Below, piece by piece: positions 37,308-42,069 of a DNA stretch of 64,000 nt (within the stretch, counting starts at the first letter, position 1; each line of letters opens with the position of its first letter). The notes under the pieces were generated by a model. That model did not search any database, was not told the DNA's origin, and saw only the letters and a program-made list of their open reading frames with translations. Source of the DNA: Eledone cirrhosa (Eukaryota); NCBI GenBank assembly GCA_964016885.1, contig OZ024755.1, positions 32,922,001 through 32,986,000 of the forward strand, written 5' to 3'. The translations under genes were made by a program, and so were the position numbers.

Positions 37308-37325
37308 GTTTGTGTCAGTCACTAT

Positions 37326-40300
37326 GAATTGTTTTCATAGCAGGTGTCTGCGAAAGATCCTGGGGATTAAATGGAGTGACCATGTAACAAACCAGGAAGT
37401 CAGGAACCGCACCAACCAGCAGCTAGTCTCTTCTGCCATCTGCAAACGACGCCTGGGCTGGTTTGGGCACGCTTTGAGACTTCCCCCGGAGAGACTGGCG
37501 AACCAAGTACTTAAATGGAACCCACAGGGAAGCAGACGGAGAGGGCGACCCAAAATGAACTGGCGCCAGACAGACAATGGCGGGACGCTGTGCAACTGGC
37601 GAACCAAGTACTTAAATGGAACCCACAGGGAAGCAGACGGAGAGGGCGACCCAAAATGAACTGGCGCCAGACAGACAATGGCGGGACGCTGTGCAACTGG
37701 CGAACCAAGTACTTAAATGGAACCCACAGGGAAGCAGACGGAGAGGGCGACCCAAAATGAACTGGCGCCAGACAGACAATGGCGGGACGCTGTGCAACTG
37801 GCGAACCAAGTACTTAAATGGAACCCACAGGGAAGCAGACGGAGAGGGCGACCCAAAATGAACTGGCGCCAGACAGACAATGGCGGGACGCTGTGCAACT
37901 GGCGAACCAAGTACTTAAATGGAACCCACAGGGAAGCAGACGGAGAGGGTGACCCAAAATGAACTGGCGCCAGACAGACAATGGCGGGACGCTGTGCAAC
38001 TGGCGAACCAAGTACTTAAATGGAACCCACAGGGAAGCAGACGGAGAGGGTGACCCAAAATGAACTGGCGCCAGACAGACAATGGCGGGACGCTGTGCAA
38101 CTGGCGAACCAAGTACTTAAATGGAGCCCACAGGGAAGCAGACGGAGAGGGTGACCCAAAATGAACTGGCGCCAGACAGACAATGGCGGGACGCTGTGCA
38201 ACTGGCGAACCAAGTACTTAAATGGAGCCCACAGGGAAGCAGACGGAGAGGGTGACCCAAAATGAACTGGCGCCAGACAGACAATGGCGGGACGCTGTGC
38301 AACTGGCGAACCAAGTACTTAAATGGAACCCACAGGGAAGCAGACGGAGAGGGTGACCCAAAATGAACTGGCGCCAGACAGACAATGGCGGGACGCTGTG
38401 CAACTGGCGAACCAAGTACTTAAATGGAACCCACAGGGAAGCAGACGGAGAGGGTGACCCAAAATGAACTGGCGCCAGACAGACAATGGCGGGACGCTGT
38501 GCAACTGGCGAACCAAGTACTTAAATGGAGCCCACAGGGAAGCAGACGGAGAGGGTGACCCAAAATGAACTGGCGCCAGACAGACAATGGCGGGACGCTG
38601 TGCAACTGGCGAACCAAGTACTTAAATGGAACCCACAGGGAAGCAGACGGAGAGGGTGACCCAAAATGAACTGGCGCCAGACAGACAATGGCGGGACGCT
38701 GTGCAACTGGCGAACCAAGTACTTAAATGGAGCCCACAGGGAAGCAGACGGAGAGGGTGACCCAAAATGAACTGGCGCCAGACAGACAATGGCGGGACGC
38801 TGTGCAACTGGCGAACCAAGTACTTAAATGGAGCCCACAGGGAAGCAGACGGAGAGGGTGACCCAAAATGAACTGGCGCCAGACAGACAATGGCGGGACG
38901 CTGTGCAACTGGCGAACCAAGTACTTAAATGGAACCCACAGGGAAGCAGACGGAGAGGGTGACCCAAAATGAACTGGCGCCAGACAGACAATGGCGGGAC
39001 GCTGTGCAACTGGCGAACCAAGTACTTAAATGGAACCCACAGGGAAGCAGACGGAGAGGGTGACCCAAAATGAACTGGCGCCAGACAGACAATGGCGGGA
39101 CGCTGTGCAACTGGCGAACCAAGTACTTAAATGGAACCCACAGGGAAGCAGACGGAGAGGGTGACCCAAAATGAACTGGCGCCAGACAGACAATGGCGGG
39201 ACGCTGTGCAACTGGCGAACCAAGTACTTAAATGGAACCCACAGGGAAGCAGACGGAGAGGGTGACCCAAAATGAACTGGCGCCAGACAGACAATGGCGG
39301 GACGCTGTGCAACTGGCGAACCAAGTACTTAAATGGAACCCACAGGGAAGCAGACGGAGAGGGTGACCCAAAATGAACTGGCGCCAGACAGACAATGGCG
39401 GGACGCTGTGCAACTGGCGAACCAAGTACTTAAATGGAACCCACAGGGAAGCAGACGGAGAGGGTGACCCAAAATGAACTGGCGCCAGACAGACAATGGC
39501 GGGACGCTGTGCAACTGGCGAACCAAGTACTTAAATGGAACCCACAGGGAAGCAGACGGAGAGGGTGACCCAAAATGAACTGGCGCCAGACAGACAATGG
39601 CGGGACGCTGTGCAACTGGCGAACCAAGTACTTAAATGGAACCCACAGGGAAGCAGACGGAGAGGGTGACCCAAAATGAACTGGCGCCAGACAGACAATG
39701 GCGGGACGCTGTGCAACTGGCGAACCAAGTACTTAAATGGAACCCACAGGGAAGCAGACGGAGAGGGTGACCCAAAATGAACTGGCGCCAGACAGACAAT
39801 GGCGGGACGCTGTGCAACTGGCGAACCAAGTACTTAAATGGAGCCCACAGGGAAGCAGACGGAGAGGGTGACCCAAAATGAACTGGCGCCAGACAGACAA
39901 TGGCGGGACGCTGTGCAACTGGCGAACCAAGTACTTAAATGGAGCCCACAGGGAAGCAGACGGAGAGGGTGACCCAAAATGAACTGGCGCCAGACAGACA
40001 ATGGCGGGACGCTGTGCAACTGGCGAACCAAGTACTTAAATGGAACCCACAGGGAAGCAGACGGAGAGGGTGACCCAAAATGAACTGGCGCCAGACAGAC
40101 AATGGCGGGACGCTGTGCAACTGGCGAACCAAGTACTTAAATGGAACCCACAGGGAAGCAGACGGAGAGGGTGACCCAAAATGAACTGGCGCCAGACAGA
40201 CAATGGCGGGACGCTGTGCAACTGGCGAACCAAGTACTTAAATGGAGCCCACAGGGAAGCAGACGGAGAGGGTGACCCAAAATGAACTGGCGCCAGACAG

Positions 40301-41940
40301 ACAATGGCGGGACGCTGTGCAACTGGCGAACCAAGTACTTAAATGGAACCCACAGGGAAGCAGACGGAGAGGGTGACCCAAAATGAACTGGCGCCAGACA
40401 GACAATGGCGGGACGCTGTGCAACTGGCGAACCAAGTACTTAAATGGAGCCCACAGGGAAGCAGACGGAGAGGGTGACCCAAAATGAACTGGCGCCAGAC
40501 AGACAATGGCGGGACGCTGTGCAACTGGCGAACCAAGTACTTAAATGGAGCCCACAGGGAAGCAGACGGAGAGGGTGACCCAAAATGAACTGGCGCCAGA
40601 CAGACAATGGCGGGACGCTGTGCAACTGGCGAACCAAGTACTTAAATGGAACCCACAGGGAAGCAGACGGAGAGGGTGACCCAAAATGAACTGGCGCCAG
40701 ACAGACAATGGCGGGACGCTGTGCAACTGGCGAACCAAGTACTTAAATGGAACCCACAGGGAAGCAGACGGAGAGGGTGACCCAAAATGAACTGGCGCCA
40801 GACAGACAATGGCGGGACGCTGTGCAACTGGCGAACCAAGTACTTAAATGGAACCCACAGGGAAGCAGACGGAGAGGGTGACCCAAAATGAACTGGCGCC
40901 AGACAGACAATGGCGGGACGCTGTGCAACTGGCGAACCAAGTACTTAAATGGAACCCACAGGGAAGCAGACGGAGAGGGTGACCCAAAATGAACTGGCGC
41001 CAGACAGACAATGGCGGGACGCTGTGCAACTGGCGAACCAAGTACTTAAATGGAACCCACAGGGAAGCAGACGGAGAGGGTGACCCAAAATGAACTGGCG
41101 CCAGACAGACAATGGCGGGACGCTGTGCAACTGGCGAACCAAGTACTTAAATGGAACCCACAGGGAAGCAGACGGAGAGGGTGACCCAAAATGAACTGGC
41201 GCCAGACAGACAATGGCGGGACGCTGTGCAACTGGCGAACCAAGTACTTAAATGGAACCCACAGGGAAGCAGACGGAGAGGGTGACCCAAAATGAACTGG
41301 CGCCAGACAGACAATGGCGGGACGCTGTGCAACTGGCGAACCAAGTACTTAAATGGAACCCACAGGGAAGCAGACGGAGAGGGTGACCCAAAATGAACTG
41401 GCGCCAGACAGACAATGGCGGGACGCTGTGCAACTGGCGAACCAAGTACTTAAATGGAACCCACAGGGAAGCAGACGGAGAGGGTGACCGAAAATGAACT
41501 GGCGCCAGACAGACAATGGCGGGACGCTGTGCAACTGGCGAACCAAGTACTTAAATGGAACCCACAGGGAAGCAGACGGAGAGGGTGACCCAAAATGAAC
41601 TGGCGCCAGACAGACAATGGCGGGACGCTGTGCAACTGGCGAACCAAGTACTTAAATGGAGCCCACAGGGAAGCAGACGGAGAGGGCGACCCAAAATGAA
41701 CTGGCGCCAGACAGACAATGGCGGGACGCTGTGCAACTGGCGAACCAAGTACTTAAATGGAGCCCACAGGGAAGCAGACGGAGAGGGCGACCCAAAATGA
41801 ACTGGCGCCAGACAGTTGAGAGGGACCTGCGAGCGGCAAACAGACAATGGCGGGACGCTGTGCAACTGGCTGCTGACCGAACGCGGTGGAACACTATGAT
41901 TGCTTCATGCGTCGCAAGACGCGGGAGCTTCTGAGTCTGA
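37326..41940 (+). mobile_element. 5'-truncated LINE 3' end containing a tandem array
   Basis: [23 protein letters not shown]...RRLGWFGHALR...GSRRRGRPKMNW; tail ctgagtctgagt; TSD gtgtcagtca at 37312-37321 and 41941-41950. Confidence 0.9.
37494..41735 (+). repeat. 101-bp tandem array of 42 near-identical units
   Basis: aaccaagtacttaaatgg recurs at 37501 + 101k up to 41743. Confidence 0.98.
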
Positions 41941-42069
41941 GTGTCAGTCAGTATATATGTTGTGCTTCTCCTGTAGAGAATTGATATTGTTAAATTAGAT
42001 TAAACAAATGGCAAAATCAAATAAATCGGCATGGGTTCGTATCATTAGCATGTGGAAAGATGTAGTTTT

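Follow-up and report, generated by a model that had tools for sequence, protein, structure and literature searches.

We examined a 64,000-nucleotide window of the Eledone cirrhosa genome (GenBank assembly GCA_964016885.1, contig OZ024755.1, positions 32,922,001 to 32,986,000 of the forward strand; coordinates below count from the first letter of this window). It contains the 3' end of a long interspersed nuclear element (LINE), 5'-truncated, RTE-like and enclosed by both copies of a 10-bp target-site duplication (TSD), and within this one insertion a 101-bp unit is repeated head to tail 42 times. Our best reading is that the array expanded recently by about a dozen duplications at the DNA level.

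Anatomy of the insertion

All parts of the element lie on the plus strand. The left TSD copy (37312-37321) matches the right copy (41941-41950) exactly, and is followed by the LINE body upstream of the array (37322-37493), 5'-truncated, whose open frame corresponds by homology to the C-terminal part of a LINE protein with apurinic endonuclease (APE) and reverse transcriptase (RT). A 6-bp ACTGGC motif at 37494-37499, the upstream copy of the microhomology used by the back-jump junction, opens the array of 42 units (37494-41735), each made of 80 bp and 21 bp of a native segment with 28 bp skipped. The last, 43rd copy (41736-41864) is the intact native 129-bp segment. It retains the 28 bp that are missing from all 42 units (41816-41843), bordered by ACAG at 41812-41815 and 41840-41843, and is followed by the downstream ACTGGC copy (41865-41870). 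The native end of the LINE open reading frame (ORF) comes next (41871-41934, stop codon at 41932-41934), then a 3' microsatellite tail of two CTGAGT hexamers (41931-41942) that overlaps the right TSD by 2 bp. Without the 42 units the element would measure 379 bp with 122 open codons, and the reading frame is closed in every 101-bp unit. No function is predicted for the array and no functional role is indicated.

Identity of the host element

The peptide encoded at 37324-37575 (P0001; 84 codons before the first skip) matched 16 of 58 candidate proteins, 12 of them at 64-74% identity. These include Branchiostoma and Asterias proteins (67-70%), and some matches carry the RT domain (PF00078, 65-70%) and DUF6451. 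Two matches of 1,030-1,076 aa, at 47-48% identity, combine endonuclease (PF03372), RT (PF00078) and DUF6451 (PF20049). The last copy and the sequence downstream of it encode a second peptide (P0002), which aligns with the C-termini of the P0001 homologues and so represents the end of the same kind of protein. Neither window peptide of the LINE had a significant Pfam match. Membership among LINEs is indicated by the homology to RT and APE proteins, by the 10-bp TSD, and by a frame that begins inside the C-terminal homology region, as expected of a 5' truncation. A BLASTN search with both ends of the LINE found no second copy in the 64-kb window, the lone match being a 13-bp one attributable to chance.

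Family copies were compared in four (X1, X2, X5 and X16) of 18 listed public runs over 41686-42260 (575 bp); X6-X11, with small shares, were left out. X16 is a reduced-representation run with the same species label, and the run table lists 24 of 5,466 pieces, so that rare forms may be hidden in it. The runs listed include no RNA run and have no bearing on expression. Behind 41942 the loose ends of 22 X1 and 43 X5 records continue the same hexamer, which indicates that copies of the family share the CTGAGT tail. The two hexamers, the 2-bp target overlap and the 10-bp TSD make up a 3' end of the RTE type, and we take the C-terminal motif to be RTE-like as well. On the tail, the TSD and this motif, the host would be an RTE-like LINE; the label is kept at this level because the window holds no RT domain for a clade phylogeny.

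In the RTE clade the 3' microsatellite overlaps the target by 1-2 bp and TSDs measure 7-15 bp, and target overlap is also described for CR1 and L2 (PMC6007223). A further RTE signature, a statistical one, is a stretch of T some 10 nt ahead of the TSD (PMC6007223); here position -10 falls within a TA repeat, and a run of TTT directly adjoins the TSD. RTE LINEs are reported to have been recently active in octopus genomes (PMC13282606; PMC9115989). An identity of 67-70% to Branchiostoma and Asterias proteins is high for a fast-evolving region in a mollusc host, and horizontal transfer is possible.

Units and junctions of the array

Tandem Repeats Finder reported a period of 101 at 37494-41815, with 42.8 copies and 99% matches. 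An in-register split gave 42 full units and the 43rd copy with its 28 extra bp, a count that comes from the assembly only. The unit has a GC content of about 55%. Variation is confined to three positions, namely 27 (12 of 43 copies have G), 53 (6 of 43 have C) and 58 (one copy), and the mean pairwise difference between units is about 0.7%. The two junctions are exact, the back-jump at 6 bp of microhomology (ACTGGC) and the skip at 4 bp (ACAG). Random pairs of breakpoints within the element share at least 6 bp with a probability of 0.0023 and at least 4 bp with a probability of 0.019; both microhomologies therefore exceed chance.

The first-pass annotation, made from the letters of the sequence, had described a single TSD-bounded LINE 3' end in which a native 129-bp segment with ACTGGC borders lost 28 bp between ACAG repeats and was amplified to 42 copies differing at three sites, only the last copy being intact. 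This description holds in each part: the TSD is exact and the LINE identity is backed by protein homology, the 6-bp and 4-bp microhomologies are exact, the register and Tandem Repeats Finder agree on the copies present in the assembly, and the three sites are those given above. That annotation also spoke of a satellite. The term is overstated for an array of 4.3 kb with one known locus, which is on the scale of a minisatellite or a variable number of tandem repeats (VNTR).

A third ACTGGC lies inside the unit (37559-37564) and recurs in each, for 87 occurrences in the element; it offers a slippage register that the array has so far left unused. Upon RNA folding, the skipped 28 nt fall partly in a weak hairpin that is open at the skip points; the folding had no shuffle control and is not used as evidence. 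Two other origins were considered and rejected. A double insertion should leave target-site or tail sequence between units, and neither a TSD nor a tail is found there. Splicing as the cause of the 28-bp skip is contradicted by the lack of canonical splice dinucleotides at the five possible skip registers.

Order of the variants and duplication history

The variants are not scattered over the array, and their order was not part of the first-pass description, nor were the 17-unit block duplication and the 2-bp overlap of TSD and tail. At position 53, C is confined to copies 1-4, 42 and 43, at the edges, and the middle 37 copies carry T, the product of a CpG transition. At position 27, G occurs in units 7, 8, 11, 13 and 14 and again in units 24, 25, 28, 30 and 31, an offset of 17 units, and all four combinations of the two sites are present among the copies. 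A higher-order block of 1,923 bp (37850-39772) is identical to the sequence 1,717 bp, or 17 units, downstream (39567-41489), where the second copy stops one letter short of the only private variant, at 41490. Shuffling of the 37-unit core reached a perfect run of this length at this lag in 8 of 20,000 trials with a threshold chosen after the data had been seen, and in 152 of 20,000 under a looser rule.

A beam search over in-phase tandem collapses, which was not exhaustive and left out site 58, reduced the array to the root AC-AT-GT-AT-GC in 11 steps or to AC-AT-GC in 12 (letters for sites 27 and 53); the 3-unit root requires one change per site. The features expected of minisatellites of the Haber-Louis type are present: a flanking repeat of 5-10 bp (here 6 bp), and local duplication after the seed, seen indirectly in the block copy, the edge allele and the root collapse. 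Since the variants are ordered, edge-sorted and block-duplicated, and private changes are few, repeated duplication at the DNA level after insertion is indicated. It is likely that the array grew via ordinary stepwise DNA duplication once the element was in place.

Age of the array relative to the insertion

In X1 and X16 the single-pass 3' end of the element (207 bp) differs from nearly all family depth at 41836 and 41904; in X5 it differs from at least 90% of it at these sites. If all units dated from the insertion, their 4,242 bp should have gathered about 41 changes at that rate, but only one private change, or three variable sites, was seen (binomial p 0.006-0.02). This estimate assumes that the differences at 41836 and 41904 arose after insertion, and it draws on 40 listed of 227 variant rows. 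The deficit supports an expansion much younger than the insertion, a timing that agrees with stepwise duplication, and the recent expansion proposed at first pass is upheld by it.

Copies of the family in public runs

Summed depth over the LINE body reached 7,805-28,756 in X1 and 2,008-9,533 in X5. In contrast, the stretch found only in the array (41686-41725) had a depth of 12.8-14.2 in X1 and of 0 in X2, X5 and X16. All seven listed X5 records of the LINE pass through the segment once, four of them without gaps, and 37 X5 contigs extend past 41736 into sequence that matches native 37464-37493 at 29 of 30 letters (counted by eye). Likewise, none of eight aligned homologous proteins repeats the segment. 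Because family copies carry the segment once, the array is not a feature of the family, a possibility that the first pass had named as its own refutation. Of 100 pattern matches in a metagenome scan, two are relatives (37-42% identity), neither with a comparable array, and both are too distant to count.

In X5 family copies the stretch 41799-41882 shows five independent rearrangements: four short back-jumps and one 64-bp skip whose ends share seven letters at ACTGGC motifs. Gaps at 15 positions are seen in two of the contigs listed. This 85-bp stretch is a possible rearrangement hotspot.

The X1 depth bins fit a single record beginning at 41688, immediately past site 53, or else a pair of records with depths of 12.8 and 2. 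X1 seems to contain the deletion junction, and this argues for its existence outside the assembly. The run possibly stems from another individual or species; the low junction depth would mean a short VNTR allele in the former case, and inflation of the array if X1 came from the assembly's own sample. With regard to copy variation between alleles, the X1 junction depth is near that of the flank, and the depth is zero in the reduced-representation run X16.

A model for the origin of the array

Taken together, the observations make it rather more probable than any other origin that this is a LINE-derived minisatellite seeded at microhomologies and then extended by repeated DNA-level tandem duplication well after insertion. 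In a first step, target-primed insertion would have placed a LINE 3' end of about 0.38 kb; the anatomy is seen at the locus, and the mechanism is that established for such elements. In a second step, a skip of 28 bp between the two ACAG motifs and a jump back between the two ACTGGC motifs would have set a deleted copy before an intact one, and one deleted copy ahead of one intact copy is the minimal seed. The two junctions are equally compatible with both directions of synthesis, and therefore slippage by RT and slippage during DNA replication or repair both fit. We favor the latter, with RT as a possible agent. In a third step, the resulting 80-bp direct repeat would permit unequal exchange or slippage, and about 11-12 in-phase duplications from a root of three to five units would be enough, the last large one having copied 17 units. 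Only the 101-bp form could grow in this manner because the 28 bp fall outside the repeated interval.

Several observations weigh against this reading. The differences at 41836 and 41904 may derive from a rare source element or from a species difference. No mutation is common to the first and last copies that would date the seed; the seed cannot be placed in time relative to the insertion because these copies differ at site 27 only and share no listed change from the family. The copy number comes from the assembly alone, and the 17-unit block could also be a long-read mis-join. In X1 the depth over the array-only stretch falls inside the range of the neighboring flank (3-65), a long way below 42-fold, depth being no measure of copy number here. 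Finally, site 27 is also polymorphic in the family (A in 71% of X1 depth and in 2% of X5); under a single-template seed, one of three array mutations would fall on such a site with a probability of about 0.05.

The last point bears on an alternative that we regard as unlikely but by no means far-fetched, in which the seed had two templates: a copy lacking the 28 bp and carrying 27A was joined to an intact copy with 27G, and expansion then followed as above. The joining may have been of two LINE RNAs in the course of reverse transcription or of two alleles of the locus, or it may have been a patch taken from a dispersed copy. Site 27 is A in the first copies and G in the last, both being family alleles, and the coincidence of about 0.05 follows from only two listed sites in the 80-bp segment with a minor allele of at least 10% in X1. 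However, this count of polymorphic sites is a lower bound, as 187 of the 227 variant rows lie beyond the listing. The X1 depth bins would also fit a deletion-junction record of about 13-14 with a back-jump record of at most 2, on the condition that contigs break at a 31-mer also present in the family, but this arithmetic has two solutions and comes without a view of single records. In maize, CRM1TR is reported to have undergone conversion from another subfamily (PMC3648361). Against a two-template seed, one ordinary transition, as in the 3-unit root, accounts for site 27 equally well.

Somewhat less probable again is that the LINE's own RT built the seed at insertion, either by hopping between two family RNAs, one of them lacking 28 nt, or by a few rounds on a 101-nt RNA circle formed with neither splicing nor a ribozyme. 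If the seed were made by RT, LINE insertion itself would deliver ready-made minisatellite seeds, and the 130-nt region would be a recurrent hotspot in the family.

A third alternative, which we consider improbable, accepts the array as real and holds its length to be inflated by the assembly, for example by a false 17-unit duplication that would leave a true count of about 25 units, or by more. The perfect 1,923-bp internal repeat and the low X1 depth over the junction stretch are what such an error would give, and the left flank, about 5.8 kb of near-continuous CA/TA microsatellite, is a poor anchor. However, typical long reads exceed the 4.3 kb of the array, the window is free of N, and the edge-sorted variants and junctions are coherent in a way that probably cannot stem from short-read polishing. 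At 41836 X1 also shows no G in a depth of 9,832, as a different haplotype would, with the proviso that contigs drop rare variants. Even with a 17-unit mis-join, about 25 units with edge-sorted variants remain.

It had been proposed at first pass that two template jumps, possibly during reverse transcription or via a 101-nt circle, preceded a recent expansion. The two microhomology-guided junctions stand, but a circle or RT as the amplifier does not fit variants that are shared, edge-sorted and block-duplicated. In its full form, this proposal has a circular RNA or DNA of 101 nt copied round and round at insertion, giving most of the 42 units at once, and we think it very improbable. It has in its favor that both junctions are common to all units and that all units lie within one TSD pair, and multimeric cDNA from circular RNA has been proposed for metazoan retrozymes (PMC7761336). 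However, a single pass round a circle yields identical units with private errors and therefore cannot give the observed variant order, in which variants are shared by 12 of 43 and 6 of 43 copies and follow the blocks, and there are fewer private changes than units of the insertion's age would hold. Nor is there a sign of how such a circle would form. No GT-AG or back-splice dinucleotides occur at any of the five skip or seven circle registers; for the AG/GT of a spliceosomal circular RNA at the circle junction, the count was 0 of 7 on either strand. No ribozyme was found either. All 35 Rfam matches are sub-threshold and lie in the flanks, mostly in TA/CA repeats, with none inside 37322-41940, and the hammerhead core motif of a retrozyme is absent from the element. 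The remaining alternative, that the LINE family normally contains the 101-bp repeat internally, has next to nothing to recommend it beyond the trace of the deletion junction in X1 and is refuted in the runs examined, where the array-only stretch is nearly or wholly absent while the LINE body is abundant, as it is by the single crossings in the listed X5 records and the eight aligned proteins.

Surrounding sequence

The insertion point lies 8 bp from the edge of a field of near-continuous CA/TA microsatellite (31516-37303, about 5.8 kb), of which about 4.8 kb consists of CA/TA units with a period of 34-36. This closeness may favor breaks or slippage at the insertion. Other long microsatellites in the window comprise 562 TGG copies (22439-24105), 273 ATG copies (27378-28198) and 931 AT copies (1-1851), and two minisatellites are young and perfect, one of 26 bp x 7.2 with 0 mismatches (47963-48150) and one of 36 bp x 3.2 with 100% matches (47310-47424). 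Sequences resembling transposable elements (TEs) are duplicated in tandem at 42263-42650 (198 bp x 2.0, 93%) and 7661-8407 (290 bp x 2.6, 95%); we take them to be like short interspersed nuclear elements (SINEs). TE-derived tandem seeds seem to be common in this genome. The microsatellite-rich landscape with SINE-like repeats nearby may resemble that of octopus genomes.

Two further repeats lie close to the element. About 800 bp upstream, 36297-36520 holds a different LINE-like 3' fragment, with an open frame that has an RGRP motif and a DRxxW end and is followed by an AG repeat; in a pairwise comparison it shares 26% identity with P0005 over 43 aa (E 0.004). Downstream, 42072-42260 is a dispersed repeat, apparently truncated here, that has a high copy number in X1, X5 and X16, with a depth of up to 65,742 in X1. 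Many run records extend beyond its boundary at 42072-42090 with a common end, which we assume to resemble that of a miniature inverted-repeat transposable element (MITE).

Comparison with known systems

A literature search with thin coverage of subscription journals returned no description of this array and none of a rolling-circle array within a LINE insertion. The origin of non-simple tandem repeats is poorly resolved, and a locus where the parent sequence, the TSD and both junctions persist and the history can be read is a good test case for how tandem repeats begin. A new mechanism would be at issue only if the seed proved to be made by RT or recurred at other insertions.

Metazoan non-LTR retrozymes come closest to the circle idea in that they, too, are tandem monomers, and they are a known route from circle to tandem array that requires a ribozyme (PMC7761336). 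However, their monomers measure 150-300 bp, carry a type I hammerhead and have a GC content below 50% (PMC7761336), compared to 101 bp, about 55% and no ribozyme match here. Tandem TE dimers that arise by double insertion share with our array a two-copy seed that grows by unequal exchange, hobo reaching about 16 copies in one line, but they keep a copy of the target site and the element ends (PMC5932611), whereas the junction described here runs from one internal site to another, with no TSD or tail between units.

Several LINE-derived satellites, such as chicken HinfI/CR1, Phodopus PROsat and the cetacean common satellite, have units from LINE ORF2 or 3' sequence, as does our array, but they are established families (PMC9659126), in contrast to a 4.3-kb array with one known locus that is still within its parent insertion. 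Reviews list satellites derived from LINE ORFs or 3' ends, and routes by microhomology or unequal exchange (PMC12628747, PMC9659126). An L1 survey recognizes, as a residual class, insertions with internal duplications or template switches (PMC2912911). The maize repeats CRM1TR and CRM4TR likewise stem entirely from one retrotransposon; a deletion made their junction, they grew at the DNA level, and their variants can derive from another subfamily (PMC3648361). They differ in their origin from a long terminal repeat (LTR) element, their monomers of more than 700 bp (PMC6947457), their (peri)centromeric position and the lack of single-step direct repeats; the present locus still has both of its microhomologies, the TSD and the intact template.

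The closest match is to TE minisatellites of the Haber-Louis type, including the Alu minisatellites of Jurka and Gentles (PMC3389668), in which the unit likewise comes from one element copy with a 5-10-bp flanking repeat and local duplication. In that model, a first duplication at 5-10-bp repeats is followed by slippage, conversion or unequal exchange (PMC3389668, PMC6947457). A human survey found 7,276 TE-derived repeats, 300 of them with such flanks, and known seeds explain only 6% of TE-derived repeats there (PMC3389668). Compared to these, the host here is the ORF end of an RTE-like LINE, a second junction (the 28-bp skip) means that the unit is no plain slice of the element, and 42 copies at a mean difference of 0.7% are far more than the mean of 2.3-2.4 units in the Alu classes (PMC3389668). 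The array is therefore a clean and unusually well preserved example of an already known process, and what sets it apart is its two-junction unit, its high copy number at near-identity and its readable duplication history.

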